This document shows positions 13,334 to 57,083 of a DNA stretch of 64,000 bases, in pieces (the first letter of the stretch is position 1; each line of letters starts with the position of its first letter). This DNA comes from Gemmatimonadaceae bacterium. GTDB lineage: Bacteria > Gemmatimonadota > Gemmatimonadetes > Gemmatimonadales > Gemmatimonadaceae. The notes beneath the pieces are model-generated. The model did not search any database. It was not told the origin of the DNA and was given only the letters and a program-made list of their open reading frames with translations. The stretch lies in the NCBI GenBank assembly GCA_031421995.1, contig JANOPS010000127.1, positions 2,326 to 66,325 of the forward strand, in the 5' to 3' direction. Position numbers and translations under genes: made by a program.

Positions 13334-13462
13334 TCATGCGGCATCGCTTTGCAAGCCTTTGCACAATCACGCGATGGTCACGGCCCACTTCTTGTATGAC
13401 GGAGCGCTAGCTATGCCCCGGGATACATGGGCGTCAACGAGCACCTTCTCCCTGTCACTGCA

Positions 13463-14527
13463 ATGATGAGCACTCAACACGCGGATATCGGCGTCGGCAT
13501 AATCGGTTGTGGCTATTGGGGCCCGAACCTGATCCGGAACTTTGACCGTCATCCACGGTGCCGGGTCGAACGCGTCGCCGACGTTCGCCGCGAGCGGGCG
13601 GAGGCGATTGCGCGTGAGTTTCACGTGCCGGCCGCGAACGATGATCCCGCGTCGGTGATAGACGACCCGCGCGTTCGACTGGTGGTCATTGCGACGCCCG
13701 CGGTAACACACTTCCCGCTTGCACGTCGCGCGTTGCTGGCGGGGAAGCACGTCCTGGTCATGAAGCCGTTCACCACCTGTACCGAGCACGCCGAGGAGCT
13801 GATCGCGCTTGCGCATCGACAGGGGCTTGTGTGCGCCGTCGACCACACGTTCGTGTATACCGGCGCCGTGCAGAAGATGTACGAGACGATGCACGACGGG
13901 TCGATGGGTGATCTGTTCTACATCGATAGTGTGCGCATCAACCTTGGACTGTTCCAGAGCGACGTCAACGTGCTCTGGGATCTCGCGCCGCACGACCTCA
14001 GCATCATCGACTACCTGCTTGACGGCCAGGACCCGACCGCGATCCATTGTCTCGGGGCGGCACACGCAGGCGGCAATCAGGAGAACATCGCGTACCTCAC
14101 GGTCACGTATCCAGGCAATGTCCTGGCCCATGTCCATGTGAATTGGCTCGCGCCTGCCAAGGTACGGCGCACGATTGTGGGTGGCTCGCAGCGGATGATT
14201 GTGTATGACGACGCGGAGCCTTCGGAGAAGATCCGGATCTATGACCGAGGGGTGTCCATCGAAAAGAGCTCGTCGGCGGAAGAAGTGTATCAACAGTTTG
14301 TCAGCTACCGACAAGGCGATATGCTCGTCCCGCAGATCAGCGGCCGCGAAGCGCTTGCCGTTGAGGTCGAGCATTTGGTGGAGTGCATCCAGACGGGAGC
14401 GGCGCCGCGGAGCGACGGCCGGTCCGGTCTCCGCGTGGTCCGCATCCTTGAAGCGGCACAACAGCAACTGGAAGCGGCGCGCGCGCCAAGCCTGGCACGA
14501 CTCCGACAGGTGATGGGAGCCGCCTGA
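13463..14527 (+). CDS. Gfo/Idh/MocA family NAD-dependent sugar dehydrogenase (WbpB/WlbA-like)
   Basis: GVGIIGCGYWGPNL, IATPAVTHF, GKHVLVMKP, WDLAPHDLS motifs; an alternative start at 13427 is possible. Confidence 0.88.
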   Translation: MMSTQHADIGVGIIGCGYWGPNLIRNFDRHPRCRVERVADVRRERAEAIAREFHVPAANDDPASVIDDPRVRLVVIATPAVTHFPLARRALLAGKHVLVMKPFTTCTEHAEELIALAHRQGLVCAVDHTFVYTGAVQKMYETMHDGSMGDLFYIDSVRINLGLFQSDVNVLWDLAPHDLSIIDYLLDGQDPTAIHCLGAAHAGGNQENIAYLTVTYPGNVLAHVHVNWLAPAKVRRTIVGGSQRMIVYDDAEPSEKIRIYDRGVSIEKSSSAEEVYQQFVSYRQGDMLVPQISGREALAVEVEHLVECIQTGAAPRSDGRSGLRVVRILEAAQQQLEAARAPSLARLRQVMGAA

Positions 14528-15684
14528 TGATCGCCCCCGCCGTGATGTCGGTGGCCCCGACAGACCGTCAGACGACAGAGGCCATACCCTTTCTTGATCT
14601 TGTGGCGCCGCATCGCGAGATCGAAGAGGAACTTGTCGCCGTCTTCCGCAACGCGCTGCGCACCGCCGCTTTCGTCGGTGGACCGGATGTGGAAGGCTTC
14701 GAACGTGATTTTGCCGCATATGTGGGCACGCCGTATGCCATTGGCGTGGCCAATGGCACCGATTCGCTGCGCTTCATCTTTCAGTCGCTGGGGGTGGCCG
14801 CTGGCGATGAAGTGATCACGGCGTCGCACACCTTCATTGCCACGTCGGAGGCGATCACACAGGCGGGCGGTAGACCGGTGTTCGTCGATATTGACCCGGT
14901 CACCATGACGCTTGATCCTGCGGCAGTCGCGGCGGCCATCACTCCGCGAACGGTCGGCATTGTCCCTGTGCACATCTACGGGCAGTCTGCGGACATGGAT
15001 CCCCTGCTTGCGTGCGCACGAAAGCACGGGCTGTGGGTGGTAGAAGATGCGGCGCAGGCTCACGGCGCACGATACCGTGGCCGAGCGGTCGGGTCGATCG
15101 GAATTGCCGGATCGTTTTCCTTCTATCCGGGCAAGAACCTTGGCTCCTGCGGCGAAGGGGGCGCGGTGACGACGGCCGACCCCGCCATTCGTGAAGGCGT
15201 GCGGCGGTTGCGTGAGCACGGGCAGCGTGAGAAGTACGTGCACGTTTCTGAAGGCTATAACGGTCGATTGCACGCCATTCAAGCCGCGATCCTTCGGATC
15301 AAACTTCGGGAGCTCGCGTCCGCGACGGCGGGCCGCCAACGGGTCGCAGGCTGGTACGCCGAGGCGCTTGCCGATATCTCCGAGCTTGAACTGCCGCGCA
15401 CAGCCGCGTATGCCGACCATGTCTGGCATCTGTACGTCGTGCGCACCGCGAATCGCGAGGCCTTGCGCCACGCATTGACCTCCGCGCGCATCGAATCGGG
15501 GCTGCACTATCCGATTCCGCTGCATCGACAAGAATGCTACGCGCACCTCCAGTATGCGGCGGGCTCGTTGCCGGTGACGGAGCAGACCGCTGCCACGCTG
15601 CTAAGTCTCCCGATGTTCCCCACGCTTACGCAGGATCAGGTCAGTCGAGTTGCCGACGTGATCCGGACCCACTTCGGCGGATAG
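14527..15684 (+). CDS. DegT/DnrJ/EryC1/StrS PLP aminotransferase (WbpE/WlbC-like)
   Basis: VANGTD, VEDAAQAHGA and FSFYPGKNLG with the PLP-binding Lys intact; GYNGRL. Confidence 0.92.
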   Translation: MIAPAVMSVAPTDRQTTEAIPFLDLVAPHREIEEELVAVFRNALRTAAFVGGPDVEGFERDFAAYVGTPYAIGVANGTDSLRFIFQSLGVAAGDEVITASHTFIATSEAITQAGGRPVFVDIDPVTMTLDPAAVAAAITPRTVGIVPVHIYGQSADMDPLLACARKHGLWVVEDAAQAHGARYRGRAVGSIGIAGSFSFYPGKNLGSCGEGGAVTTADPAIREGVRRLREHGQREKYVHVSEGYNGRLHAIQAAILRIKLRELASATAGRQRVAGWYAEALADISELELPRTAAYADHVWHLYVVRTANREALRHALTSARIESGLHYPIPLHRQECYAHLQYAAGSLPVTEQTAATLLSLPMFPTLTQDQVSRVADVIRTHFGG

Positions 15685-15691
15685 GTTACGC

Positions 15692-16924
15692 ATGGGGACC
15701 GCCACCGAGGACCGACGCCACGTCGTCCTATTCATTGGGGACAGCAGCTATGGCGTGCTCTCGTATCTCACCACGGACCTTGCCCGCGCGCTCATGGCGC
15801 ACGGATGGACGACAGAGGTCGTGGATCTCACGCGACTCTCGCTCGCCACGGAGCTTCGGCGGATTCAGCGCGAGGATCGGGTGCGTTTCTTCTGCGCATA
15901 CTCGGGGTACGGAGCGGATATCATCGCCAATGACCGTCTGCTCTACGACGTGCTGGCGGTTCCGTACGTGGGATTGATGCTCGACAATCCCTGCTACTTT
16001 CCAACGCGGCACCTGACGGCCTCCGAACAGCTGATGCTGTTGCACGGTGATGATGGCCATCACGATGTGTCCGTGGAAATTTCGCCGCGGGGCAGCTGGC
16101 GCGGCCTGTTTCGTCTTGCGTCCACGCCGTCGACCGACGGCGAACGGCCTCTCGCGGCGCGCGCGTATGGGGCGATGTTCGCGAGCAAGGGCGGCGACCC
16201 GCTGCGCTATGAGCGCGAACTCCGCGCGACGCTGGACGCCTCGTCGCGCCGCTTTGTGTTTGAGGTGGCCGCGGCGCTGGGTGCCCAGCACGCGCCGCAG
16301 CGCGTGTGGGAGGTGGCGCGCGCGCACGCGGCGTTACTTGGGATAAGCACGGAACACGCGCCTTCGGTGGCCTACCATACGCTGGTGCTGCGAGCCGATC
16401 ACCTCGCGCGTCTTCGTCGTGCCACCGCCGTCGCTCGCGCCCTCTTGTCTGTTCCTGTCACCTTCGTCGGCGGCGACTGGTCACACCTGCAGTCGCCGAC
16501 CAGCCGCGCCACCTTTCTCCCGCCCGCACCGTTGCCGGTGGTTCGGCGCATGATGGCAAATAGTCGTGTGGTGCTCAACGTGCAACCTGGCACGACGGAT
16601 TCGATGCATGATCGCTTGGTACTCGGCCTTCACGCCGGTGCGGTGGTCGTCTCCGATTCCAACCGTGTCATTCGCGAGCGTGTCGGGCACGACGCCTTTG
16701 TTGTCTGGGACGGCGGCCCCGAGAGTATTGCGGACGTGGTGTCTGACTCAACGCGAGAATCGGCCGCGCTGCAGTCCCGCGCGACGCGTGGGCTGCGCAC
16801 GGCCCGCGAGCGGCTGACGCTGGCACAGATGGCGGCAGCGCTCCTGCAGACCGTCCAATTGCATGGTGCCCAGCGTGCGCAGCCGCCGGCAGTGGCCCAG
16901 CATTCCTTGGCGCGAAGCGCCTAG
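15692..16924 (+). CDS. Glycosyltransferase (CgeB/YkvP-like GT-B C-terminal domain)
   Basis: C-terminal MMANSRVVLNVQP....HDRLVLGLHAGAVVVSD motif; lies within the sugar operon. Confidence 0.65.
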   Translation: MGTATEDRRHVVLFIGDSSYGVLSYLTTDLARALMAHGWTTEVVDLTRLSLATELRRIQREDRVRFFCAYSGYGADIIANDRLLYDVLAVPYVGLMLDNPCYFPTRHLTASEQLMLLHGDDGHHDVSVEISPRGSWRGLFRLASTPSTDGERPLAARAYGAMFASKGGDPLRYERELRATLDASSRRFVFEVAAALGAQHAPQRVWEVARAHAALLGISTEHAPSVAYHTLVLRADHLARLRRATAVARALLSVPVTFVGGDWSHLQSPTSRATFLPPAPLPVVRRMMANSRVVLNVQPGTTDSMHDRLVLGLHAGAVVVSDSNRVIRERVGHDAFVVWDGGPESIADVVSDSTRESAALQSRATRGLRTARERLTLAQMAAALLQTVQLHGAQRAQPPAVAQHSLARSA

Positions 16925-16945
16925 TACCGCATCATACCGCTCTCT

Positions 16946-18862
16946 ATGTCACTCGACGCCGCCAGTACCTGTGCCACGCTCACGGACATCATTGAAGACA
17001 TCGCGGTGCGACTGCGCGCGGCGCATGACTGGCCGCTCATTGCCCCCGCGCCGGACGCCCAACTGGTCGACGAGCTTCGCCGCGCACGCGAGGAGTTCTG
17101 CGCGCAACTCGGCGCGTGTACCGCCGCCGAAGCCAACACGATCCTGAGGTCCGCACTCTTCGCGGTCGGCGAGGCACCTGTGCACACAGGATTGATACAC
17201 GACAGGCCTGAGGCCGCGAGGCAGCGTATTGCCGCCGCGCACGGCATCATGGGCACGGGATGGAACCATCCGATGGCGATCCACGCATTCCTGATCGCTG
17301 TGCTGCACGTGTCACCGCACGAGATGCCGCTGATGCAGGACCTGCACGCCTGCCCTGATGTGGTGGTCGAGCGCTACTTGGCGTGGCTGTTCCGACGCCC
17401 CAATTTCCGGACTATGGGCGACGACGCCCGCTACGTCACCTGGCTTGCCGACATGCTGCAGTGGCTGCGCGCGCAAATCCTGGATGCACGACTGTCCGCG
17501 CGCCTCCCGTTGATGCTGAATCAGGTGCTGCAGCGCCTCGATATCGGCATGATCATCTACAGCGACGTCTCGATCCGGGCCGTCCTTGATGCACGTGCCG
17601 CGCTCCTGGAAACGGTGACCGCACAGGCCAACGTGCTGCGCGGATCGCGCATCGCAGGCCCTGGCCCCCGCCCTCGCGGACGGAAGATTCGTTTGGGATT
17701 CCTGATCCGCACGATCATGCGTCACCCAGATCCCCTCGCCTTCTGCGCCCAATTCGAGCACTTTGATCCCGAGCGCTACGAACTCGTGCTGTACTCACAC
17801 GACCTGGTCGACCGACAGTGCGAGCACGACATCAGTCTCTATCGGCGCATCTTTGCGATCGCAACGGCGATTCATTCGCTGCATGGGTTGTCCGTTCGAC
17901 AGATGATCGACCGCGTCCACGAGGACGATCTCGACATCTTCGTGTATTCGTATGCGGCAACCATCGGCGTCACGCCGACCGAGTGTATGGTGAGCGCGCG
18001 TCTGGCACGCATCCAGGTCGTGATGAATAGCCACGTGCCGCTGGCCACCGGCCTCCCGAGCTTCACCCACGTCGCGACCGTTGCACCACCGGCCGAATCA
18101 CGCGCCTCGGTGATGTCAGAGTGCCGAGAGACACTTGCCGAAATTCCACGCGTGCTGCTGAGCTATCCGCCGGTGCGTCGCGAGGTGCCTGACCGTGTGA
18201 TCACGCGCCAGACGTTGGGGATTGCTGAAAATGTGCCGGTCTTTTACAACGGTGGCGCCGTGGACAAGATTGTGCCACTGCTTGCCCACACGTGGATTCG
18301 GGCGCTTGCGCGGACACCACACAGCCGTCTGGTGCTGGCGCCGTTCAACCCCGGCTGGCTCGGTGTTCGAGGGAAGACCACGTTATCGGGTTTGCTCGAC
18401 ACCGTCTGCGCTCTGGAGGGTGTGGACCGCGGCCGCGTCATCGTATTGCGCGAGCTCAGTCCGCGAGATACACAACAAATTCTCGATTTCACCAGCGTCT
18501 ACCTCGGCACATTTCCTCACGGAAGCTCGACATCGGTGGCGCTCGCCCTGCAGGCGTGCGTACCGGTTGCCACGCGACGGTCTCCCTGGCTTCGTGGGAC
18601 CGGCGATGCCAGTATCGTGTCGTCGATTGGGCTCCACGAACTGATCGCGCCTGACACCGACGCGTATGTCGATCTCGCCGTGCGATTGGCATCCGATCAC
18701 GATTGGAACGCCAATCTGCGGGCCGCCATTGGCGCTGCGCTCCCCGGAGCGCCGTTTCTCAGCGGGACGGAGTACGGGCACGGCCTGCAGCGCATGTTCG
18801 ACACGTTGGCACAGGAGGCCTTCGGGTACCCGGTTCCCACGAGCGTCAGCGAAGCGGCCTGA
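16946..18862 (+). CDS. GT41-family protein glycosyltransferase (O-GlcNAc transferase/HMW1C-like), without N-terminal TPRs
   Basis: RKIRLGFL, LDIFVY, RLARIQ and VYLGTFPHGSSTSVALALQACVPVAT...GLHELIA...YVDLAVRLASD match the GT41 catalytic lobes. Confidence 0.72.
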   Translation: MSLDAASTCATLTDIIEDIAVRLRAAHDWPLIAPAPDAQLVDELRRAREEFCAQLGACTAAEANTILRSALFAVGEAPVHTGLIHDRPEAARQRIAAAHGIMGTGWNHPMAIHAFLIAVLHVSPHEMPLMQDLHACPDVVVERYLAWLFRRPNFRTMGDDARYVTWLADMLQWLRAQILDARLSARLPLMLNQVLQRLDIGMIIYSDVSIRAVLDARAALLETVTAQANVLRGSRIAGPGPRPRGRKIRLGFLIRTIMRHPDPLAFCAQFEHFDPERYELVLYSHDLVDRQCEHDISLYRRIFAIATAIHSLHGLSVRQMIDRVHEDDLDIFVYSYAATIGVTPTECMVSARLARIQVVMNSHVPLATGLPSFTHVATVAPPAESRASVMSECRETLAEIPRVLLSYPPVRREVPDRVITRQTLGIAENVPVFYNGGAVDKIVPLLAHTWIRALARTPHSRLVLAPFNPGWLGVRGKTTLSGLLDTVCALEGVDRGRVIVLRELSPRDTQQILDFTSVYLGTFPHGSSTSVALALQACVPVATRRSPWLRGTGDASIVSSIGLHELIAPDTDAYVDLAVRLASDHDWNANLRAAIGAALPGAPFLSGTEYGHGLQRMFDTLAQEAFGYPVPTSVSEAA

Positions 18863-18904
18863 CCGTGAGCGGGCTTCCGGAAAGCGACCGTTTCCTTCGG
18901 CCCC

Positions 18905-19951
18905 CTACCGCCACGACTCCATCAGGCCGCGCACGCGTTCCGCGCCGCCGCCGTCCACCAGCCGCGCGCCCGCGCGTGCCATGTGCTCTCTGACCGTGTG
19001 GTCGTCGCACAGGGCCGCGATCATGTGGTGCAGGCGCGATGCCTGAAGCGCATTCGCCGCGCCAAGCGACCATGCGGCTCCCGAGCCCACGTACGCCTTG
19101 AGCGCATGGGTGTTGCGGCGGTCGCCGTGGACCACCAACGCGGGCAGTTGCATCGCTGCGATCGCTGCCAGGCGGGTTCCACCCTCGGTGATCGCGACGT
19201 CGCCCCACGCCATCAAGGAAGGGATGTCTTCCACGGTCGTCAGCACGGATATGCGATCAGCGTTGTCGGGGTCCGCCGAGATCAAGGTGCGGAGTGATTC
19301 GACATGCGGGTTGATTGCATCGACGACGATGCGCGCTGTGATATCCGGGCTCGCTTGTATCGCGGCGATCACGAGTGCGTTGAGGTTGTGAGGGTCGATC
19401 TCACTGAGCATGACCAGCACGCGCCGCGCGATGATGGGGATCTGGCGTGACCATGCACGCCACGCGGCAAACTCGCTCCCAATCAACGCATATGAGGCCC
19501 CCGCAAGGACCACGGCAGACGGAGCCGATCGCGTGTACGCGTCAATCGTGCTCCCGATGTTGGGATTGAGGATCACGTCCGCGTCCCACGCCGGCCGAGC
19601 GGCATGGTCATCAAGCATCAGTACGCGGGCATCTCCCCGGCGAACTGCACGCTGCCACGAAAGATTGAAGCCGCTGCCATCGGCAAGAATCCAGTCGGAC
19701 GAGCGCGCCCGGGCAAGACGCGTCGTTTGTTGCGCGTCATCTACGCTGCCAATCGCCGCATCAACGGGCACGAAGGTGACGCCGAACGCCTCAAATCGGT
19801 GTCGGAGCGCGAGCGGCACGCTGGCGCTGGCCAGGGCAACCGTGTGACCAGCGGCGCGGAGTGCTTCGGCCAGCGGCAGACTTCGGGCGGCGTGCTCTGG
19901 GGCGACGGTCGGTGACGCGTCAGTACGTATCACGACGTCGAGCGCGCGCAT
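18905..19951 (-). CDS. PseG/SpsG-like UDP-sugar hydrolase (GT-B fold), diverged
   Basis: VIRTDAS...EHAARSLPLA, ILADGSGF, LMLDD, DVILNPN, LIGSEF, LMAWGDVAITEGG; start moved to ATG 19951. Confidence 0.7.
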   Translation of the reverse strand: MRALDVVIRTDASPTVAPEHAARSLPLAEALRAAGHTVALASASVPLALRHRFEAFGVTFVPVDAAIGSVDDAQQTTRLARARSSDWILADGSGFNLSWQRAVRRGDARVLMLDDHAARPAWDADVILNPNIGSTIDAYTRSAPSAVVLAGASYALIGSEFAAWRAWSRQIPIIARRVLVMLSEIDPHNLNALVIAAIQASPDITARIVVDAINPHVESLRTLISADPDNADRISVLTTVEDIPSLMAWGDVAITEGGTRLAAIAAMQLPALVVHGDRRNTHALKAYVGSGAAWSLGAANALQASRLHHMIAALCDDHTVREHMARAGARLVDGGGAERVRGLMESWR

Positions 19952-20044
19952 GCCTACGTCGCGTGCGCGCTGTGGCGCGTACAACGTCCGGGTTCTGCCA
20001 CAGTCGTAGCGTGATGCGCCGGGACGATCACCCTGCACCCCCCT

Positions 20045-21367
20045 TTACGCATACACAGCCACTTCGGCCAGCACGGCGTCGATCACCCGCTCTTGCAGGT
20101 CAAACGAAAGGCCAGACCACAGCGGCAGTGTGAGCAGACTCTCGGACGCCAGTTCCGCGACAGGACACAGGCCACGGTTGTAGCCCAGCTCACGCCAGTA
20201 GGGGTGCAGATAGATCGGTCGAGCCGGCGGACTCGCGTCTATGCCGCGAGCACGTAAGCCTTGGCAGAGCGACTCCCGTGCTTCCGCCGGTTCGGCGGCC
20301 TCCAGCCGTATCGGAAATTGTTGAACGGCATGCGTGCGATCCACAGGAATCGTTTGCGTCACGAGAGCCGGAATCCCCGCGAATGCGGCACGGTACCGTT
20401 GCGCGAGCGCCTGACAATGAGCAGTTCTGTCGGTGAGCCGTTGCAGCTGACGCAGCCCGAGCGCGCTGTGCGCATCGCTGACGCGATAGTCGAACCCGAG
20501 GGATACAACGTCCTGCTCACGTCTGGCGATTGCACCGAAGGCCGGTGTCTCACAACCAGCGGTGCCGGTGCGAAGACCAAAATGGCGCAACTCGCGCAAA
20601 CGTTCGGCGACGGTGGCATCATTGGTCGTGATCATGCCCGCCTGACCGATAGACGCCTGCTGGCCCGGCAGCAAACTGAATACGGTGCAGTCGGTAACGC
20701 TGCCAACACGACAACCTTCGAACTCGGCACCCGGTGTGGTGCCAGCGTCTTCGATGAGCATCAACGCGTGTTGTGCGGCGAGCGCCTGCAGCGCGCCGAG
20801 ATCGGCGGGCAACCCCGCATAATCCACGGCGATGATTGCCCGCGTACGGCGAGTGATCAACGACGCGACGTGCGACACGTTGATGGTGAGCGTCTCCGCG
20901 CAAACGTCCGCAAACACCGCGGTCGCTCCGACATATCGCACGCACGTTGCACACGCCGCGGAGGCCAGCGCCGGCACGATGACCTCGTCTCCGGGACCGA
21001 TCCCAGCCACCTGCAACGCGAGGTGAAGTGCAGCCGTTCCGCCCGAGACGGCGATGGCATGCGATGCGCTGGTCGCGGCGGCGAATGCCATCTCAAACAT
21101 CCCAACGGTCGATCCTCGCACGCGGCCGTTGCCACGCAGCGATGCGATCACTGCCAGCAGATCGTCCTCGTCGATCACATGACGATCGTTGGGAATGCGA
21201 TCTTCAAGGACAAGCAGGGGGTCAGCATGCTCACGGCGGGGACGACGGCGGCGATCTTCGAAAAGCCCCGCGACACCAGCGACCAAGAGCGGCGGCGAGT
21301 CGACCGGCGAGTCGGTTGGTGGTGCAAACGTTGAGAAACCGAGCGAGAGATCGGGAGTGTGTATCAT
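20045..21367 (-). CDS. PseC-like DegT-family aminotransferase homolog lacking the PLP lysine
   Basis: IPNDRHVIDEDDL..V, SGGTAALHLA, IIAVDYAG; the active-site loop reads FSLLPGQQ instead of FSFxPxK. Confidence 0.75.
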   Translation of the reverse strand: MIHTPDLSLGFSTFAPPTDSPVDSPPLLVAGVAGLFEDRRRRPRREHADPLLVLEDRIPNDRHVIDEDDLLAVIASLRGNGRVRGSTVGMFEMAFAAATSASHAIAVSGGTAALHLALQVAGIGPGDEVIVPALASAACATCVRYVGATAVFADVCAETLTINVSHVASLITRRTRAIIAVDYAGLPADLGALQALAAQHALMLIEDAGTTPGAEFEGCRVGSVTDCTVFSLLPGQQASIGQAGMITTNDATVAERLRELRHFGLRTGTAGCETPAFGAIARREQDVVSLGFDYRVSDAHSALGLRQLQRLTDRTAHCQALAQRYRAAFAGIPALVTQTIPVDRTHAVQQFPIRLEAAEPAEARESLCQGLRARGIDASPPARPIYLHPYWRELGYNRGLCPVAELASESLLTLPLWSGLSFDLQERVIDAVLAEVAVYA

Positions 21368-21413
21368 AAGAGGCGGCAACGGAGCGTGGGCAGGACGATC
21401 AAACCGTCACTTA

Positions 21414-31466: not shown

Positions 31467-31990
31467 TGTTCAAATTTCGGTTGCAACGCATCCTTGAACT
31501 GCGCCAGCAGGCTGAGCAAGCGCGCGCCCGGGAACTCGTTTCGGCGCGCGACGATGCCGACGTGGCTCGCGAGGCGCAGAAGACCATCGAGGAGCTGCAC
31601 ACCACGTCGCGCGCACAGACGAACGCCGCGCAGCAGGCGACGCCGCGCGTCGGGCATCTTCAACAGCTGGGAATCGTGCTCCAGTCGCTGGACGCGCGAG
31701 TGGCGCAGGCCGGCGAGGAGGTTCGTGCGGCCGATGATGTGGTCGTCAGCGCCCAGAGGGTTCTTGAGGACGCGGCGCGCGATCGTCGCATTTTGGACCG
31801 CTTGAAGGACCGCCACGCGGAGCAGTGGACCGCTGATGCGGCACAGAAGGACCGACTAGGCATGGACGAAGTGGCGCTGGCGCGGTTTACGCGCACCGCC
31901 GATGTGCGCGCCTCCGATGATGCAGCAACCCGTACCCGCAGCGATGACGCCGCGCGGAAATCACCTCGGCACGATGGTTCGAACTCATGA
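31463..31990 (+). CDS. fliJ: Flagellar export protein FliJ
   Basis: FKFRLQRILELR start, coiled coil, DEVAL near the C-terminus; follows fliI. Confidence 0.88.
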   Translation: MMFKFRLQRILELRQQAEQARARELVSARDDADVAREAQKTIEELHTTSRAQTNAAQQATPRVGHLQQLGIVLQSLDARVAQAGEEVRAADDVVVSAQRVLEDAARDRRILDRLKDRHAEQWTADAAQKDRLGMDEVALARFTRTADVRASDDAATRTRSDDAARKSPRHDGSNS

Positions 31991-32670
31991 AGAAACTCCT
32001 CATTCCCGTAGTCATTGCGTTGCTCGCCGGTGTTGGTGGGGGCTCGGGCTTCGCCTATATGGGTGCGTCCAAGGCATACGTCGCCGACTCTACCCAACGC
32101 GCCGACAGCCTGGAGAAGCATCCGGCCGCGGAACGGGACTCGTCGTCGCATGAAGCCGCCGCCAAGCCCGCGACGGACGCTGACCATGCGTCGGCAGACT
32201 CTGCGGCCCACGCATCGCCATCGCACGACGTGTCGCAAACACCGGCCGATAGTGTGCGGGACGCCGCGACCTCGCACACGCCGCTGCAGACAGCCACCAA
32301 GGATCTGCATGATGCATTGCCAAGCGAGAAGTCTGTTGCCTCATCGACCACGCACACCGCGCCCGCGGCGAAGACCGATGCCGGTGCAAAGGCCGCGGCG
32401 AGCACGACGAGTGCTGCCAACGTGGTTCGTGAAGCACGCAACGAGGCGATCGCCACAACGCTCCCCGAGCAACGGCTTGCCAAGATCTTCGCCGCGATGT
32501 CCGCGAAGGATGCGGCCAAAGTGCTGGAGCAGATGCCCGATGCCGACGTGCGTTCGATCCTCTCACTCATGAACGACCGCAGCGCGGCCGCGGTCCTTGC
32601 ACAATTTGGCGCGGCGCGAGCAGCCGCCATCACTAAAGGCACGAAAGGCGCGCCGGGAGGTACGCCATGA
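31987..32670 (+). CDS. MotE/FlbB/YlxF-like protein (N-terminal TM, C-terminal MgtE_N-like repeats)
   Basis: LAKIFAAMSAKDAAKVLEQMPDADVRSILSLMNDRSAAAVLAQF; located between fliJ and fliK. Confidence 0.75.
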   Translation: MKKLLIPVVIALLAGVGGGSGFAYMGASKAYVADSTQRADSLEKHPAAERDSSSHEAAAKPATDADHASADSAAHASPSHDVSQTPADSVRDAATSHTPLQTATKDLHDALPSEKSVASSTTHTAPAAKTDAGAKAAASTTSAANVVREARNEAIATTLPEQRLAKIFAAMSAKDAAKVLEQMPDADVRSILSLMNDRSAAAVLAQFGAARAAAITKGTKGAPGGTP

Positions 32671-34724
32671 ACATCAACAACATCTTTACTCCGCGTCGCG
32701 ATCCGAAACCGGACGCCGACGTCCGCCCGGACAGCAACATGGCGCTGCGTTCCACGTCGCGCGCCGAACGGTCGGACGCGCTTGCGCGTCGCAGTCGCGT
32801 ACGCGACACCGACGACGACACCACCGCCGAGCGCGTGGCCCGTGCCAAGTCGCGAGCACAATTCTCGGCCATGCTGGCGGCGCTTGCTGGTGTCGATGGC
32901 AACATGCCGAGCGCGGCGCTACCGGAATCCTCGCCTGCCGATGACGCCCTCCTCGATCGACTGCTCAATGGTTCACTCGGCGCATCGGATGGCGAGTTGC
33001 GCTCTGACGATGCCCTGCAGACCACCAGCGACGCCGCAGACGCGCTGCAGTATCGGCTCCGTGGGACGGCGGCGGCCGGGGATCGGCCGGCCGCAAACAT
33101 GTCCGGTCTCGCGCGCACCGATGGCGAGGCGCTGGGTTTGCAACGTGACGCCATGCACACGCGGATCAACGAGGTGATCGGACGTATCGTCGCTCGACGC
33201 GGGACCTCGGTTGAAGACTTCAAAGCGCTCGGCGACGACCGCGCCGCGAACCTCTTGGTGGCATTGGACGCGTTGCTCTCGAAGGCCGGGACGCCAGCCG
33301 GGCTGGAACTCGCGGACGCAAGTGCGCGCGCAGCGCTCGAAGCAGCCATGACCGCGCTGAGGAGTGCGTCCGCTGCCTCCGCAGCGGACGTGACGACGGC
33401 GGTGCGCGAGGTTGAGGGGCTCGCACCCGCGCTTCAGGCGCGACTCGGGCGCGTCATCGATCGTATGAAGTCCGAGTACGGACACGACGTGAGCGTGGTC
33501 GAGACCGTGCGCAGCCAGGAGCGACAGGACTTTTTGTACGAACAAGGGCGGACGCGGCCGGGTGCGGTGGTCACGTGGACGCGTGATTCGGCGCATCTCT
33601 CGGGCGACGCGGTCGACGTACTCGTTGACGGCTCGTGGACCAACGCCGAAGGCTTCGGTCGCCTGCAGCGCATCGCGCAAGAGGAGGGGCTCCGTACGCT
33701 CGGCGTGCGCGACCCGGGGCATCTGGAGCTGCCTCGCGACGAACGGCGAAATGCGGCGGGCGGCGGGCTCGCGTCGAAGGCGCTGCTCTCCACGTCGCCG
33801 GTGCAGTCCGTGATTGCCACGACTGCTGCACAGTCAGCTGGCGCGCAGTCAAGCGGCGCAGCGTCTGGTGTCGCTCGTGTTGCTGGCGTCGCGCAAGCGG
33901 CCGCCGTGGCACGAGTCGCCGACGCCAGCGGTGCGCGACGCTTTACGGGCACATACGCGACGCCCTCCGACAACGCAGGCCCGGTGACTCAAACGGCGGG
34001 CGTGGTGCCTACAGCGGTCGATAGCGGTGCGGCATCACGGCAATCATCGGGTGAGGCTGCGCACGATGAGTCGACCAGCGATCGGAAGTCCTCGCCGGGG
34101 TCGGCGCGGTCGTCCGATGGCTCGACGCCACCGGCGTTTGGTGCGACGCATGGCGCGACGCCGATTGCCAGCGCCTCAGACGTGACCCCCGTCGCGACTC
34201 CCGCCGGCGCCCAGTCGGCGGAGCGCGTGGCTGACGTGCAACAGCTACGCGAGAACGCACCCGCGGGTTCCGTGTCGCGGATGACGCTCAACGTCGACAC
34301 ACCAGATGGCGGGCAGGATCGTATCACGGTTGATCTTCGCGGGGCGACCGTTGATACACACATCAGCACCGATGCGGCAAATGCCGACCGCCTACGTGTC
34401 CGCACCGCCGAACTGCAGGACGCGCTCGGTCGGCACGGCCTCGAGGGCGACAGCGTACGCATTTCGGGAACCCCACGTACGGATGCCACTGAGGCCGCGC
34501 GCGTTGTCGCTGGTGAGCGGGATGGAGTCCGCTTCGGTGGAGCACAGCAGGGCGCCCCTGGGGACGGGGCGACGAGTCAGGGCCAGCGCGAGCGCGCGGC
34601 CAACGCGCGGGAATGGGATCGTCCTGAGTCTTCTCGTCAGTCGCGCGACGAGCAACGAGAATCTTCAAAGCGTGGCGCGGGCCAGCCTGGTCAGCGCGAA
34701 ACGTACAACGGGAGTGATCGATGA
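32667..34724 (+). CDS. fliK: Hook-length control protein FliK with an internal M15-family zinc peptidase domain
   Basis: Position between the motE-like gene and flgD; low-complexity A/S/T-rich ruler; C-terminal Flg_hook-like domain (~34270-34465); M15 motifs RS-x3-Q-x2-LY-x-QGRT, S-x-H-x6-D and D-x2-H at ~33420-33735. Confidence 0.8.
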   Translation: MNINNIFTPRRDPKPDADVRPDSNMALRSTSRAERSDALARRSRVRDTDDDTTAERVARAKSRAQFSAMLAALAGVDGNMPSAALPESSPADDALLDRLLNGSLGASDGELRSDDALQTTSDAADALQYRLRGTAAAGDRPAANMSGLARTDGEALGLQRDAMHTRINEVIGRIVARRGTSVEDFKALGDDRAANLLVALDALLSKAGTPAGLELADASARAALEAAMTALRSASAASAADVTTAVREVEGLAPALQARLGRVIDRMKSEYGHDVSVVETVRSQERQDFLYEQGRTRPGAVVTWTRDSAHLSGDAVDVLVDGSWTNAEGFGRLQRIAQEEGLRTLGVRDPGHLELPRDERRNAAGGGLASKALLSTSPVQSVIATTAAQSAGAQSSGAASGVARVAGVAQAAAVARVADASGARRFTGTYATPSDNAGPVTQTAGVVPTAVDSGAASRQSSGEAAHDESTSDRKSSPGSARSSDGSTPPAFGATHGATPIASASDVTPVATPAGAQSAERVADVQQLRENAPAGSVSRMTLNVDTPDGGQDRITVDLRGATVDTHISTDAANADRLRVRTAELQDALGRHGLEGDSVRISGTPRTDATEAARVVAGERDGVRFGGAQQGAPGDGATSQGQRERAANAREWDRPESSRQSRDEQRESSKRGAGQPGQRETYNGSDR

Positions 34725-35500
34725 TTAGTGCAATTTCACGAAGCGTCTTCGACACCGTATCCAACGGTGTGGCCGTTGCCGAACCACCGAGAGGCGCGGC
34801 AGAGCAGTCGCAACCGCGGGTACTGCCGACCAATTCGGCAGGAATGGGGCGGGACCAGTTCCTCAAGCTCCTGGTTTCACAGCTCAAGAATCAGGATCCG
34901 CTCAACCCGATGGATGGAAAGGATATGGCCGCGCAACTCGCGCAATTCTCCGCCGTGGAGCAACTGATCGACATCAACAAGTCGGTGACTGCGGCGCAGG
35001 AGGCACAAGAGGCGACGGCCGCCGCGATCGAATCGCTCGAAAAGACGCAGAACGAGCGCGCCAATGAACTCGCGTCATTGATCGAGGGACAGATGGCCGT
35101 ATCGACGGTTGGCAAAATCGGCGTCACCACGGGCAACACCGTGTTCGTCGACCGCGAAGGGATCGGTCAGTTGGTGGTTGATACCGGTACACTCAAGGGT
35201 GTAGGGCAAGTCACGGTGATGGACGACAAGGGCAACACCGTGTCGCGCGGTCTGCTTCCGAAAGTCGGGACGGGGTCGCAGGCGTTTGACATGCGGGACA
35301 TCGCGTTCGACCCGCCGGTCGAGCCAGGGAAGTACAGCTACAAGTTTGAGGTCGCCACGGATGGCGGCCAGTGGCGTCAGGTCAAGACGTACACCGCCGG
35401 ACGGATTACCGGCATGAAGTACGATAACGGGAATCCCATTCTGATCATTGGCGACAGCTTGGCCGTTCCGATGTCGCAACTGATTCAAATCCGCGGCTGA
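34721..35500 (+). CDS. flgD: Hook capping protein FlgD
   Basis: MGRDQFLKLLVSQLKNQDPLNPMD...AQLAQFSAVEQL. Confidence 0.95.
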   Translation: MISAISRSVFDTVSNGVAVAEPPRGAAEQSQPRVLPTNSAGMGRDQFLKLLVSQLKNQDPLNPMDGKDMAAQLAQFSAVEQLIDINKSVTAAQEAQEATAAAIESLEKTQNERANELASLIEGQMAVSTVGKIGVTTGNTVFVDREGIGQLVVDTGTLKGVGQVTVMDDKGNTVSRGLLPKVGTGSQAFDMRDIAFDPPVEPGKYSYKFEVATDGGQWRQVKTYTAGRITGMKYDNGNPILIIGDSLAVPMSQLIQIRG

Positions 35501-39394: not shown

Positions 39395-41023
39395 ATGCTC
39401 TCCGCCGCGCTTGCCGTTGTCGCTTCCCTCGCCTTTGTGCTAGGGCTCGGCGCACTATGTCTCTGGGCGCTCAAGCGCTGGGGCTCTCTGTCCCTCGCGT
39501 CGAAGCCGCGCATCGCGGTCGAGGTCGTGCAACGGATCGCGCTTGGACCGAAGACAGGACTGGCCGTGGTGCGCGTTGGTGAAAAGGTCATGGCCGTGTC
39601 GGTTGGCGAGGGGGGAATTCGCACACTCTTCGAGCTGGACGAAGCCGATCGACGGCACGTGATCGAGAGCAGTCAGGTCCCTACGCCGATGGTGTCGAGT
39701 CGTGCAGCATCGACCGCGTTCGCCAAGTTCCTTCCTGGAGCGTTTGGCGAGGCAATGTCGACGGCGATGTCCAATACCACGGCGACGAACCACGTCACGA
39801 CGGCTGCCCCAAGCGCAGCGATGACTCCTTTCGCCGAGGGGACATATGTCGCCAGACCGCTCGAAGGTGATCTCCGTATCATGTTCGGTGGCGCGCTCAG
39901 TGGCGCGACTCGGCTCCTCGTACTCGCGGGTTTCGTGGTCATGGGCTCAACGCGTGCGTCAGAGCTCGCGGCGCAAACGATCACGCCGACCGTGCCCGCT
40001 GCAACCACGCCGAGACCCGCCGCAACAACACCAGGTGCCCTCCCCGCTCGTGCCGGTGCAGCGCCGACCGTTGGCACCGGGCAACCAACGCCACCGGTGG
40101 CACCATCGGCGCCGCTTGTTCCACCGTCCATGCGTTCCGGTCGTGGTGCGGCCACCCGTACCGCAACGCCAGCCGCCACAGCGGCTCCGGCCCAGGGCAA
40201 TGGCGCCGCGACAACCGCGGACGGTACGGCGACGCGTCGACCGATGTCGCAGATGCAGGTCGACTCGTCGGCCAAGAGCGGCGCGAGTGCGCGCGCCACT
40301 AGCGCGCCGCCCGCCGCCGTCGGCGCTGACGAGGCCATCATGCGTATGCTCCCCCAGATGGACGTCCAGTTGGGTGATGCGAAAGATGGCGGGCTTCGAC
40401 TGAACGGCACGGTTGGCATCGTCGTGATGATGGGGCTGTTGACCTTGCTGCCGACGCTCCTCCTGATGATGACTGGATTCACGCGCATCCTGATCGTACT
40501 GCACTTCCTGAAACAGGCGATGGGCACGCAGAGTGCACCGCCTGCTCAGTTGCTCGCTGCGATGGCTCTGCTGCTGACCGGGTTTGTCATGGCCCCCACG
40601 CTAAGCGAGGTAAATAGCAAGGCAATTACTCCGTGGCTGGACGGCACCATCACACAGGTCGAGATGATGAAGACCGGCGTGGTCCCGATGCGCGAGTTCA
40701 TGCTCAAGCAAACCCGAGAGTCGGATCTGAAGACGTTCGTGGAGATGAGCCGCCTCCCGCGGCCCAATACGGCCGCCGATGTGCCACTCCACGTCTTGAT
40801 GTCCGCGTTCGTGGCCAGTGAGTTGCGGACCGCGTTCCAGATCGGCTTCGCGATCTACCTCCCCTTCATCATCATCGATACGGTGGTGGCATCGGTGTTG
40901 ATGAGCATGGGCATGTTCATGTTGCCGCCAGCCATGATTTCCTTGCCATTCAAACTGCTGCTCTTTGTCTTGGTTGACGGATGGAGCCTGACCATTAGCA
41001 GTCTGGTACAAAGCTTCAAATAG
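39395..41023 (+). CDS. fliP: FliO-FliP fusion protein
   Basis: N-terminal FliO domain (TM then VQRIALGPKTGLAVVRVGEK), long P/A/T-rich linker, C-terminal FliP core (TGFTRILIVL..LKQAMGTQSAPP...PAFxxSEL...MGMFMLPP..ISLPFKLLLFVLVDGW); one uninterrupted frame. Confidence 0.92.
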   Translation: MLSAALAVVASLAFVLGLGALCLWALKRWGSLSLASKPRIAVEVVQRIALGPKTGLAVVRVGEKVMAVSVGEGGIRTLFELDEADRRHVIESSQVPTPMVSSRAASTAFAKFLPGAFGEAMSTAMSNTTATNHVTTAAPSAAMTPFAEGTYVARPLEGDLRIMFGGALSGATRLLVLAGFVVMGSTRASELAAQTITPTVPAATTPRPAATTPGALPARAGAAPTVGTGQPTPPVAPSAPLVPPSMRSGRGAATRTATPAATAAPAQGNGAATTADGTATRRPMSQMQVDSSAKSGASARATSAPPAAVGADEAIMRMLPQMDVQLGDAKDGGLRLNGTVGIVVMMGLLTLLPTLLLMMTGFTRILIVLHFLKQAMGTQSAPPAQLLAAMALLLTGFVMAPTLSEVNSKAITPWLDGTITQVEMMKTGVVPMREFMLKQTRESDLKTFVEMSRLPRPNTAADVPLHVLMSAFVASELRTAFQIGFAIYLPFIIIDTVVASVLMSMGMFMLPPAMISLPFKLLLFVLVDGWSLTISSLVQSFK

Positions 41024-41262
41024 CCTGTTGGGGAGTGGAAGGATCGTCGCACCGCGCAAACGGCCTGCTGAAAGCCCGGCGCACCGCGACGAATGGAGCG
41101 GCCGTTCACTCTCTCGTGGACGGCCGTTCGTCGTATCGGGCCGTTGCGGCGTGACGCCCTGCACCGCGTGTCGTCATGTGATACGGAAGTCCGCCGCGAA
41201 TCCTGTTGCCGGAACGAACGCCGAAGCCGGTGTCGTCCTGCTGCCGAGCATGGACCGTGGAC

Positions 41263-42750
41263 ATGTCAGTCTTCATTGCCATGCGAATGTCTGTGCCGCA
41301 CGCCACATCATGTGTCGTGGCGCTTTCCGAATTGATCACGAGACTCGCCACACGAGCGGATTTTGTGTCGATCAAGGAGGTCTTCGCCTCGCTGTGCTTG
41401 TTTGCCAGTGAGGGACATATCGAGTTGGTGGACTCGGACGATGGACTCCGCGCCAACGACCTGCAGTTCCCCCCATACAGCGATGACGCGCGCGCCCTGC
41501 TGGAGTCCATGCGCTGGCACGGGATCGCCGCGCTTGATGTGGATTGGTCTGCCGAACCGGAGGAGCTGTTCCAGTTGGCGCGATTGCTTGGCGACCGCTC
41601 CGAGAACGGCCACGCAGCTGACGATTCGTTTGACAGTCAGGCGCATCGTGCCGGCTGTTGGCATGTCGCGGTGCGCATGCGCGCGAGTACCGAACCGCAG
41701 ACAGCGCTGGGTCTTTTGGAGCAGAACGAGACCGCACCCGTGGCGCTCGCTGACAGCGTTCAGTCGCTGGCGCAAGCGCTTGGACTCGCGGAGACGACCG
41801 TGCGACGCGCACGTGATCTTGAAGGGGAAGGTGCCGCGCTAGAACTCACGCGCGTCTTGCGCGACGTCCTGCGCGTTGAAGGTGCGCTGTGCGGCGCCCA
41901 CGATGAGCTAGCCGCCGTGCGGAAGGTGTGGAGCAACACCTTTGACCGCATCGTAACGCGCGACGTCCTGGAACTCGTGTCGTTGTTGCTGCCATCGCGA
42001 GGGCACGCTGACCCAGACGTCCTCGCGGTGTTGGCGCGGGCCGGCGAGACGGCCGCAGGCGTGTTGATCCGCCGTCTGCTGGGAGCGCAAACCCTGTCGG
42101 AGCGCCGCGTGCTGTACGATGCAATTGTGCATGTGCGCGCGGGCTTCAGCACACTGGTGCGCTGCCTCAATCACTCGCAGTGGCATGTCGTACGTAATGC
42201 GGCGCTGCTCCTCGGGTCCATGCGCGCCCGGAATGTCGAGAGCGATCTGGCACGCACACTCAAGCACAGTGACGCTCGCGTCCGTCTGGCGGTGGTGACG
42301 GCGCTATCCCACATCGCCTCGGTCCCGGCACTGACGCTCGTGGAAATGGCGATGGCCGACCGCGACAGGTCCGTCCGTCTCCGTGCCTTTCGGAGTCTGC
42401 ATGCGCGTCACGACTACCAGATCTCCGCTCGCTCCATCGCTGACGCCCTTGACGTCGAGCAGAACGCTCATGTGCAGATCGATCTCCTCCAGGCCCTTAT
42501 TGACGCGCCCAGCGCAAACCTCGTGCCGAAGCTGATGCGCTTCTGCACCCCCGGTCATCACCGCAGGTTCTCCGCCGACGTGCGACTGGCCCTGCTCGAA
42601 GCGCTCGCCAAGCTTCGGCCAACACCGGCAGAACCCCTGCTGCGACTCGCTCGACACGATCACGATCCCATGATCCGCGAACGAGCGAATCGGCTCGTTC
42701 AAAAACCGCGCGACGCGAGTCCCTCTCACGACGCAGCACACCAGCTGTGA
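41263..42750 (+). CDS. HEAT/PBS-lyase repeat protein
   Basis: Repeated helical units WHVVRNAALLLG, DARVRLAVVTALS, DRSVRLRAFRSL, DPMIRERA; start uncertain (41206-41287). Confidence 0.75.
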   Translation: MSVFIAMRMSVPHATSCVVALSELITRLATRADFVSIKEVFASLCLFASEGHIELVDSDDGLRANDLQFPPYSDDARALLESMRWHGIAALDVDWSAEPEELFQLARLLGDRSENGHAADDSFDSQAHRAGCWHVAVRMRASTEPQTALGLLEQNETAPVALADSVQSLAQALGLAETTVRRARDLEGEGAALELTRVLRDVLRVEGALCGAHDELAAVRKVWSNTFDRIVTRDVLELVSLLLPSRGHADPDVLAVLARAGETAAGVLIRRLLGAQTLSERRVLYDAIVHVRAGFSTLVRCLNHSQWHVVRNAALLLGSMRARNVESDLARTLKHSDARVRLAVVTALSHIASVPALTLVEMAMADRDRSVRLRAFRSLHARHDYQISARSIADALDVEQNAHVQIDLLQALIDAPSANLVPKLMRFCTPGHHRRFSADVRLALLEALAKLRPTPAEPLLRLARHDHDPMIRERANRLVQKPRDASPSHDAAHQL

Positions 42751-54429: not shown

Positions 54430-54761
54430 TCGACGCGATTGGAGGGCTCACCGCACCGCCATCACGAGCCGAAGCACGTCATTCGTCCCTCAAGAAGGCC
54501 TCCGAGCAGTTGGAAGGCATGTTCGTGCAGCAACTGTACAAGGCCATGCGCGACACCGTTCCACAGCAGGAAGGAATCGTTTCAGGCGGAGCCGGTGAAG
54601 ATATTTTCACCGGACTACTGGATCAGCACCTTGCTGCCGAGACTCCCAAGCATTGGCAGACCGGACTGTCTGACGCGCTCTATCGTCAACTCAGCCGCGG
54701 CATGCCATCCGACATTCCCCAGGCGGCGGCCGCGCCGACCATAGACACTCCCGCACTCTGA
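54426..54761 (+). CDS. flgJ: Rod-cap protein FlgJ, rod-binding domain only (no muramidase)
   Basis: LKKASEQLEGMFVQQLYKAMRDT...DIFTGLLDQHLA...GLSDALYRQL; 111 aa. Confidence 0.88.
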   Translation: MIDAIGGLTAPPSRAEARHSSLKKASEQLEGMFVQQLYKAMRDTVPQQEGIVSGGAGEDIFTGLLDQHLAAETPKHWQTGLSDALYRQLSRGMPSDIPQAAAAPTIDTPAL

Positions 54762-56760: not shown

Positions 56761-57078
56761 ATGCTTATTCTCGGACGCCGTGAAGGCGAGTCTATCCTGA
56801 TTGAAGGCGGTATTCGTATCGTGGTCGTCGCCTGTGAACGTGGCGGCGTCCGCATCGGTATCGAAGCTCCACCGGATGTGAAGATTCTGCGCGGGGAGAT
56901 CGCCGACAAGGTCGCGCTGGAAAACCAGCGCGCGACGGCGGCGTCTGCCTCGTCGCCGTTGCTGGCCTCGTTGCTCGGCCCGGCCGCACGTGCCGTTTCG
57001 ATACCATCTGCAGCGTCAGACGCGGCGCATCCCGCACCGGCCGACGCGGGACACACGTCAACCTCGTGCCCGCTGTGA
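56761..57078 (+). CDS. csrA: Carbon storage regulator CsrA with a C-terminal extension
   Basis: MLILGRREGESILI...VRIGIEAPPDVKILRGEI followed by a helical tail. Confidence 0.93.
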   Translation: MLILGRREGESILIEGGIRIVVVACERGGVRIGIEAPPDVKILRGEIADKVALENQRATAASASSPLLASLLGPAARAVSIPSAASDAAHPAPADAGHTSTSCPL

Positions 57079-57083
57079 CCTCG

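Follow-up and report, generated by a model that had tools for sequence, protein, structure and literature searches.

The DNA analyzed here, referred to as the window, is a 64,000-nucleotide stretch from a Gemmatimonas species that contains, on its forward strand, an intact open reading frame (ORF) of 685 amino acids (32667-34724) in the slot of fliK, the gene for the flagellar hook-length control protein. The order of genes in this slot is fliJ, a ylxF-like gene, the ORF, flgD and flgE. The ylxF-like gene immediately upstream (31987-32670, forward strand) encodes an MgtE_N domain (Pfam MgtE_N, E=1.2e-8), while flgD, immediately downstream (34721-35500, forward strand), encodes the hook cap (Pfam FlgD, E=1.6e-22), and fliK shares 4-nt ATGA overlaps with both neighbors. 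Its start codon is ATG, preceded by a GGGAGG Shine-Dalgarno-like motif 7 nt 5' of it, and an alignment of homologs reveals that the start codon and the N-terminus are conserved.

Five regions, all read from the forward strand, can be distinguished in the encoded protein. The N-terminal region (residues 1-244, 32667-33398) begins with a disordered stretch followed by helices between residues 51 and 238 in the AlphaFold2 (AF2) model; it is weakly conserved, with 31-39% identity and many indels, and is presumed, by analogy with the N-terminal part of FliK (FliK-N), to comprise an export signal and the ruler segment. It is followed by a LAS/M15 zinc peptidase domain (residues 245-365, 33399-33761), recognized through PDB, PHROG, AF2 and Foldseek, and by an Ala/Ser/Gly-rich linker (residues 366-514, 33762-34208) that is disordered in the AF2 model, its residues 366-512 being modeled at pLDDT <50. 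The T3S4/Flg_hook substrate-specificity-switch domain (residues 515-605, 34209-34481) precedes a charged C-terminal tail (residues 606-685, 34482-34724), likewise disordered according to the model and the alignment. The GC content is 68.6% in the peptidase domain and 68.2% in fliK, with no compositional sign of recent acquisition.

Identity of the ruler protein

This ORF is the flagellar hook-length ruler FliK and has the T3S4 fold; its export by the flagellar type III system and its control of hook length or of FlhB specificity are predicted. The Pfam family Flg_hook (PF02120) matches residues 531-600 (nt ~34257-34466) with E=6.4e-5 and 23.1 bits against a cut-off of 29.8, and 19 of 28 homologs match the same family at E<=0.01, the best at 2.2e-6. 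When a family profile of the whole protein was compared with the PDB, endolysins were retrieved, but the C-terminal domain of FliK (FliK-C, 2rrl) was not found by sequence; the C-terminal domain was connected with FliK and PscP by fold search only. Residues 515-605 are modeled at pLDDT ~80-84, and a Foldseek search with the whole-protein model, which also matches ChiX, placed FliK-C (2rrl, prob 0.99) and the SS domain of PscP (5cuk, prob 1.00, TMt 0.62) at ranks 2 and 3. Across homologs, the switch domain displays 63% identity.

FliK of Salmonella and E. coli and the YscP/PscP proteins, all members of the T3S4 family, have the same general plan, with a disordered or helical N-terminal ruler and a C-terminal switch domain of the same fold, and FliK of Salmonella and E. 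coli also occupies the same gene slot before flgD. In contrast to the 405 residues of Salmonella FliK, the protein described here has 685, and a folded zinc peptidase of ~120 residues lies inside its ruler. We know of no characterised type III ruler that contains an enzyme. A literature search found no paper on a FliK-peptidase fusion, in agreement with the preliminary description of this DNA, which had mentioned no characterised example.

The embedded peptidase domain

The family membership of the peptidase was established with the excised domain, through solved structures, PHROGs and fold comparison. As a single sequence, it matches the solved endolysins LysB4 (E=1e-5) and Ply500 (E=7e-5), and a profile from 17 genomes strengthens these matches to E=9e-11 and E=6e-10, respectively; PHROG endolysin families match it at E=3.5e-17. 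The domain model is of high quality (pLDDT 87, pTM 0.80), and the top 18 PDB matches obtained with it in Foldseek (E<=1e-3) belong without exception to the M15/LAS enzymes, with Ply500 (E=1.8e-7, TMq 0.66), LysB4 (TMq 0.69), LysECD7 (0.63) and ChiX (0.58) at the head of the list. Pfam matches of the excised domain stay below the cut-offs for both Peptidase_M15_3 (E=0.012, 16.2 bits versus 23.2) and VanY (E=0.055, 13.7 bits versus 25), and the full-length protein receives no M15 call from Pfam or NCBIfam. The domain is a divergent, compact member of the M15/LAS group, with the L-Ala-D-Glu endopeptidases Ply500, LysB4 and ChiX as its nearest relatives, and its own activity is predicted from these sequence and fold matches. 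Bond specificity is not readable from sequence, as the LAS group counts carboxypeptidases and dipeptidases among its members, too (VanXY, LdcB).

Three motifs make up the predicted active site. The R282-S283-x2-R286-Q287 motif (33510-33527, forward strand) provides the putative substrate or transition-state arginine, H310-x6-D317 (33594-33617, forward strand) the first and second zinc ligands, and D349-x2-H352-x-E354 (33711-33728, forward strand) the catalytic acid together with the third zinc ligand; the codons of the latter two motifs were checked. R282, H310, D317, D349 and H352 align with the motifs of Ply500 and LysB4, and these five key residues map one to one onto the catalytic set of ChiX from Serratia marcescens (5opz), namely Arg47, His68, Asp75, Asp120 and His123 (PMC5778951). 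A zinc site of the same H-x6-D ... D-x2-H form, together with the conserved arginine, is present in the phage endolysins Ply500 (2vo9), LysB4 (6akv), LysECD7 (8q2g) and the T5 endolysin (2mxz), which are L-Ala-D-Glu endopeptidases of the MEROPS M15C type. Unlike these endolysins, the FliK domain has neither a wall-binding domain nor a holin partner, and it is shorter and more compact at its C-terminal end. ChiX, for its part, is a free-standing enzyme whose entry into the periplasm is aided by a holin and whose task lies in the secretion of chitinase rather than in flagella.

Among distinct domains, R282, R286 and Q287 are kept in 306 of 307, and R282, H310, D317, D349 and H352 in all 306 that are complete. 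The peptidase block is the best-conserved part of the protein, with a mean pairwise identity of 74% and no gaps across homologs; the values for ruler and linker lie at 28-42%, with the indel-rich linker at 28%. At the level of sequence, this pattern demonstrates strong purifying selection on the block. The domain is predicted to be catalytically competent, its active-site residues being intact.

The main elements of the preliminary description are borne out by these results. It had placed a 685-residue ORF at the fliK position, which is indeed open and flanked by flagellar genes, and a Flg_hook-like domain near its C-terminus, which lies where it had been located (residues 531-600), is sub-threshold in Pfam and matches 2rrl and 5cuk in fold. 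The M15 segment that it had quoted is present at residues 252-357, and its assignment to the Ply500/CwlK type (M15C-like) with an intact motif agrees with the sequence, PHROG and fold matches. The profile searches and AF2 models that it had proposed as a check recovered both an M15 fold and a Flg_hook-type fold, each with sub-threshold Pfam scores.

Other wall hydrolases and distribution of the fusion

The flgJ gene of the same cluster (54426-54761, forward strand) encodes 111 amino acids that consist of the rod-binding domain (Pfam Rod-binding, E=2.7e-16); in line with the preliminary description, Pfam detected no GH73, SLT or M23 domain on this protein. Also in keeping with the earlier claim that the cluster holds no other wall hydrolase, Pfam scans of ~50 ORFs of the window found none, and a genome-wide scan placed no SLT or M23 domain on the 69-kb contig. 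The 99.4%-complete genome has no glucosaminidase (GH73) domain and no paralog of the peptidase domain. The genome does have three SLT genes at other sites, unlinked to the flagellar contig, and these could open the wall instead of the FliK peptidase.

In a scan of genome collections with a signature specific to the FliK-M15 family, the best 80 loci from 224 species genomes all had the domain in the slot between fliJ and ylxF on one side and flgD and flgE on the other. A profile search of 1.84 billion proteins yielded 453 clusters at E<=1e-30, and the top 150 listed all belonged to the family. A search for free-standing relatives gave nine matches, the strongest of which are apparently short fragments of the FliK-M15 family, and the closest match that is clearly a distinct protein, an M15 peptidase of PF13539, has 47% identity, so that no donor lineage can be named.

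Within Gemmatimonadota, the FliK-M15 fusion is patchy and not phylum-wide, which is a new observation. In a sample of 55 flagellated members of the phylum, the fusion is intact in 18, decayed to a relic in one and lost in one. Plain FliK accompanied by an SLT domain on FlgJ occurs in 13, all belonging to another class (fused in 12, split in 1; the fusion was seen, for example, in L025 and L026), and the remaining 22, all from a sister family, lack both FliK-M15 and a hydrolase on FlgJ. In these sister-family genomes, SLT genes sit far from the flagellar cluster, and no linked lytic transglycosylase was found near the flagellar clusters of five of them. FlgJ-SLT is absent from every FliK-M15 genome examined; since the genomes are related and perhaps two or three evolutionary events account for this non-overlap, it does not constitute a statistical association.

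Even the source's own family is not uniform: one genome (G089) has a FliK without the peptidase, and another (G140) retains a peptidase relic whose H..D motif is gone, indicating that the domain is dispensable in some lineages. Given the 22 genomes with neither arrangement, the loss and the relic, the peptidase is not a general need of flagella whose FlgJ has no muramidase. The preliminary description had tied the fusion to a muramidase-less FlgJ; the two do co-occur in the source genome, but the link is much looser than claimed, because GH73 FlgJ is missing from all flagellated Gemmatimonadota sampled.

Proposed wall opening and competing explanations

The passage of the flagellar rod through the cell wall remains a matter of debate. 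In beta- and gammaproteobacteria, a dual-domain FlgJ combines the rod cap with a GH73 glucosaminidase, and in another class of Gemmatimonadota with SLT. As would be the case for FliK-M15, the wall hydrolase is joined to a substrate that type III export handles early and is delivered through the nascent rod; in FlgJ, however, the carrier is the rod cap rather than the ruler, and glycan strands are cleaved, whereas the metallopeptidase described here is predicted to cleave peptide bonds. To our knowledge, SltF (Rhodobacter), PleA (Caulobacter), BB0259 (Borrelia) and TagX (Acinetobacter) are stand-alone wall enzymes, none of which travels through a type III channel or is joined to a ruler or another machine subunit. 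All four, including BB0259 (PMC8517470), are dedicated cutters that allow a trans-envelope machine to pass the sacculus in organisms with a single-domain FlgJ. TagX is an endopeptidase of type VI secretion and, like the domain described here, a peptidase rather than a glycosidase (PMC5061870).

As the preliminary description had suggested, the FliK peptidase may be the means by which the source bacteria open the wall for the rod. It is slightly more probable than not that FliK, with its embedded peptidase, cuts the wall for the rod after type III export. FliK is among the early substrates of flagellar type III export; in this reading, it would pass through the growing rod in unfolded form and, as long as the outer membrane is not yet breached, be released at the rod tip into the periplasm. 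The peptidase would fold again there, take up zinc and cleave the stem peptides of the peptidoglycan nearby. Such cutting would ease rod penetration and P/L-ring assembly, a job equivalent to that of the FlgJ-fused hydrolase elsewhere. Once the hook has crossed the outer membrane, FliK would leave the cell, and wall cutting would consequently be confined to the stage of rod growth.

This proposal is supported by the strong conservation of the domain, by the finding that FliK-M15 never occurs together with the FlgJ-SLT of the other class, and by published work showing that secretion of FliK goes on for as long as rod and hook are being assembled, and that beta-lactamase fused to FliK folds into active enzyme in the periplasm (PMC13344023). 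[quoted passage not shown] In a 2026 paper, the hydrolase activity of Salmonella FlgJ was reported to raise the efficiency of flagellar assembly without being essential (PMC13584718), so that any phenotype of the FliK peptidase may be mild. In a broader form, the ruler would double as a vehicle that carries an enzyme through the type III channel; the peptidase would act only while the rod tip is in the periplasm, so that the geometry of assembly would both time and place the opening of the wall, and the wall hydrolase would be a module that can reside on FlgJ, on FliK or at an unlinked locus. The chances of this form of the proposal are about even.

An unlikely alternative is that the peptidase is active but remodels the wall for the P-ring or the stator (MotB) or in turnover, while unlinked lytic transglycosylases let the rod pass. 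The three SLT genes of the source genome, the sister-family flagellar gene sets accompanied by unlinked SLTs only, and the dispensability of FlgJ hydrolase activity in Salmonella are all consistent with it. Nevertheless, a housekeeping role does not explain why the domain occurs solely as part of a ruler exported by type III secretion, nor why it has no paralog, and ring or stator fitting is not separable from wall opening for the rod by sequence data. A little less likely still is a non-catalytic module that binds zinc and peptidoglycan and thereby pauses or positions FliK, tuning how length is measured or when the switch occurs. Its position inside the ruler would suit such a function, as folded or slowly exported segments could alter the kinetics of measurement, and some members of the family, among them the N-terminal domain of hedgehog, are not hydrolytic. 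Yet conservation in essentially every copy extends beyond the metal ligands to the catalytic acid D349 and to R282, which is unexpected for pure binding, and the decayed G140 copy has lost the whole motif set rather than keeping a binding shell.

The preliminary description had also considered the release of a lytic effector, in which case the peptidase would act outside the cell on neighboring bacteria or shed wall fragments and flagellar export would be a secretion route only; this we regard as rather improbable. FliK does pass into the medium once the hook is extracellular, as established for Salmonella (PMC13344023), and the domain is nearest to the catalytic domains of phage endolysins; on the other hand, it carries no cell-wall-binding module, is never free-standing in the FliK-M15 genomes examined, and has no immunity-like gene adjoining fliK. 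Moreover, an external peptidase has no access to the wall of diderm neighbors, FliK is a low-copy substrate, and the domain has stayed with the fliK slot in at least two orders, which fits a role in assembly better. An artefact, in which an assembly or frameshift error joins two genes or the peptidase merely adjoins the true fliK, is rejected as extremely improbable: although one metagenome-assembled genome (L051) has peptidase and switch domain in different frames, the two share one frame at 74 of the 80 independent loci, full-length homologs number more than 239 and are found on closed chromosomes as well (which disposes of the error that the preliminary description had asked to be checked), the start codon and N-terminus are conserved, and the ORF at 32667-34724 gives the sole Flg_hook-like match in the 99.4%-complete genome.

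Annotation pipelines name the protein 'M15 family metallopeptidase' or 'CwlK', and fliK therefore seems absent from FliK-M15 genomes. Three arrangements occur naturally within Gemmatimonadota (FliK-M15, FlgJ-SLT and neither), together with variants of loss and decay; the phylum thus offers a comparative system, which is testable since cultured Gemmatimonas species exist. If FliK indeed delivers the peptidase, the wall-opening function would be able to move between export substrates, a peptide-cutting enzyme would be able to replace a glycan-cutting one, and the ruler would have gained a second job.

Identity and setting of the FliK ruler

The open frame at 32667-34724 (+) encodes 685 residues and had been assigned in the preliminary description to the hook-length ruler FliK, lying before flgD and carrying a C-terminal Flg_hook-like domain. 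Flg_hook is the sole Pfam match on the full ORF (residues 531-600, E=6.4e-5), at 23.1 bits below the 29.8-bit cut-off, and the sequence profile taken alone does not identify the protein as FliK. The same model is matched by 19 of 28 homologs at E<=0.01 and by no other ORF in the 6.3-Mb, 99.4%-complete genome. In a structure model built from the 28 homologs, residues 515-605 fold confidently and, by fold comparison, match the FliK C-terminal domain 2rrl and the substrate-switch domain of PscP (5cuk). This uniqueness, the switch-domain fold and the gene position together make the FliK assignment secure.

The ORF begins with ATG, preceded by GGGAGG, and overlaps both neighbours by ATGA, at the upstream stop codon and at the start of flgD, so that it is translationally coupled within an operon. 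The surrounding order is fliF, fliG, fliH, fliI, fliJ, a ylxF-like MgtE_N gene, the fliK ORF, flgD, flgE and fliM, with fliN, a single FliO- and FliP-domain ORF, fliR, flhB, a CbiA/ParA-type P-loop NTPase gene (probably flhF or flhG), a sigma-70-family factor gene (probably fliA), flgF, flgG, flgA, flgH, flgI, flgJ, flgN, flgK, and then csrA, motA and motB farther along. Upstream lie fliD, a flagellin gene, a probable sugar-modification island, a sigma-54 activator, a rod-protein gene and fliE, and the entire window is one flagellar regulon.

An apparent FliO-FliP fusion of 542 aa (39395-41023 (+)) joins a FliO domain (24-113) to a complete FliP domain (345-537), and a 514-aa HEAT-repeat protein is encoded amid the export-gate genes, between fliP and fliR (41206-42750 (+)). 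Beside flagellin and fliD, positions 9352-21379 carry genes for an AMP-binding enzyme, a LuxC-like acyl-CoA reductase, two DegT-type aminotransferases and a GT41-like glycosyltransferase, a set that looks like a flagellin glycosylation island. At 56761-57743 (+), csrA follows flgK and precedes a 225-aa ORF without Pfam match in a frequent fliW position; the gene for an EAL+HDOD protein (59506-60822 (-)) adjoins motB.

The embedded LAS/M15 peptidase and its conservation

A segment of FliK at ~33420-33735 had been read as M15 of the CwlK and Ply500/Ply118 type retaining its arginine and zinc ligands, and this reading is borne out for residues 245-365. Pfam M15 models score below threshold on the segment, and NCBIfam yields no match. 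The excised segment matches the endolysins LysB4 (E=1e-5) and Ply500 (E=7e-5); a 17-genome profile matches the same two proteins (E between 9e-11 and 6e-10) and then, weakly, other LAS proteins; and PHROGs returns phage endolysin families (E=3.5e-17). The domain is modelled with confidence (pLDDT 87, pTM 0.80), and all 18 significant PDB fold matches (E<=1e-3) are M15 wall or D-Ala-D-Ala peptidases, headed by the L-Ala-D-Glu endopeptidases Ply500, LysB4, LysECD7 and ChiX (TMq 0.58-0.69). In the ChiX structure, His68, Asp75 and His123 bind zinc, Asp120 is the catalytic acid and Arg47 the substrate arginine (PMC5778951). Their counterparts in FliK are H310, D317, H352, D349 and R282, respectively. 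Sequence and model show a LAS/M15 peptidase domain with an intact set of catalytic residues, and the genome has no paralog of this domain.

The protein has more than 239 homologs that are full length (600-800 aa); all source names among those listed are Gemmatimonadota, and several sources annotate them as "CwlK" or "M15 family metallopeptidase". When 1.84 billion representatives were searched with a profile, 453 clusters scored E<=1e-30, and in nearly all of them the peptidase domain lies within a 430-860-aa protein. Across the 28 homologs, mean pairwise identity is 74% in the peptidase block, which has no gaps, 63% in the switch domain and 28-42% elsewhere. R282, R286, Q287, S308, H310, D317, D349 and H352 are unchanged in all 306 distinct complete domains, a set biased towards copies with good scores. 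With each species represented by a single genome, a scan detected the signature in 224 genomes, whose labels include Gemmatimonadaceae, Gemmatimonadales and Longimicrobiales; among the best 80, the peptidase domain lies between ylxF and flgD in every case and shares a frame with the switch domain in 74. The peptidase block is shown to be under purifying selection and the domain to be tied exclusively to fliK.

The 648-aa homolog P0150 combines an intact peptidase (395-503) with an incomplete second copy of the domain upstream (173-237), now decayed. In a Gemmatimonas MAG (L051:1460-3806), peptidase and switch domain occupy different overlapping frames, a split that is a frameshift, pseudogene or sequencing error; its 479-aa product is publicly named "M15 family metallopeptidase". 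Two loci binned as "Candidatus Kuenenia stuttgartiensis" and "Chloroflexales" (L041 and L100) carry a Gemmatimonas-type fliJ, ylxF, fliK-M15, flgD, flgE block, with L041 flgD matching that of the window at E=1e-111, and both contigs are probably mis-binned.

FliK and FlgJ domain types across Gemmatimonadota

As the preliminary description had stated, the window's FlgJ (54426-54761) comprises the rod-binding domain alone (111 aa), and no other wall hydrolase was found among the approximately 50 window ORFs. The genome contains no GH73 glucosaminidase domain; it has three SLT and seven M23 domains, none of them on this contig.

Among 200 evenly sampled Gemmatimonadota genomes and the window genome, 55 count as flagellated, defined by flgD and rod-binding FlgJ. 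A GH73 domain occurs in only one sampled genome, on a contig away from its flgJ and flgD. The first group (20 flagellated genomes) comprises the window's family and two families of other orders, each represented by one genome; 18 of the 20 encode intact FliK-M15, and FlgJ is single-domain in those read (the window and G089). In G140, a member of the window's family, the FliK peptidase region (L005:4833-6554 (-)) is a decayed relic in which a "VVETVR...VVTW" stretch remains recognisable and the S-x-H...D and D-x2-H motifs are gone. G089 encodes a 645-aa Ser/Asn-rich FliK without peptidase (L004:8420-10354 (+)) alongside single-domain FlgJ (L029); the presence of FliK-M15 in three further genomes of the genus makes this look like a recent loss.

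The second group, from a different class (13 flagellated genomes), gave no M15 match in any genome. FliK is plain in the single example read throughout (L003), with a strong Flg_hook match (E=6e-20), and FlgJ combines the rod-binding domain with SLT, fused in 12 genomes and split over two adjacent frames in one. These FlgJ-SLT proteins are about 297 aa long with a C-terminal SLT (E=4.5e-33; L025:1787-2680 (-), L026:1835-2725 (+)). The third group, a sister family within the window's own order (22 flagellated genomes), likewise lacks any M15 match; the two FliK proteins read throughout (L002, L006) are plain, FlgJ is single-domain, and five closed or near-closed genomes have all their SLT genes at a long distance from the flagellar cluster.

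None of the 55 genomes combines FliK-M15 with FlgJ-SLT, which fits functional substitution, but the pattern traces back to a small number of evolutionary events among related genomes. FliK-M15 is present in about a third of the flagellated genomes sampled. The proposed association of the fusion with muramidase-less FlgJ is considerably looser than the preliminary description suggested: the third group, the G089 loss and the G140 decay show that a single-domain FlgJ does not by itself make the peptidase necessary.

A possible role in rod passage

No description of a FliK-peptidase fusion was found in literature searches covering FliK and M15 peptidases, FliK in Gemmatimonas, and fusions of hook-length control proteins with peptidoglycan hydrolases. 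FliK-M15 is a type III ruler carrying an extra enzyme domain and may be functionally parallel to dual-domain FlgJ, whose hydrolase domain leaves through the same export pathway and makes rod passage more efficient, although it is not essential (PMC13584718). FliK belongs to the early substrates; its secretion goes on throughout rod and hook assembly, into the periplasm for as long as the outer membrane has not been crossed, and a beta-lactamase fused to it folds and works there (PMC13344023). [quoted passage not shown]

Among other explanations, service in another flagellar or housekeeping wall task is unlikely, a non-catalytic binding or timing module slightly more so, and an extracellular lytic effector is improbable. 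An artefactual fusion is refuted by the data. The explanation favoured here, with moderate confidence, is that Gemmatimonas FliK would release the peptidase at the tip of the rod, and the enzyme would there cut stem peptides and produce a local loosening of the mesh; after the hook has emerged, FliK would exit the cell and wall cutting would stop.
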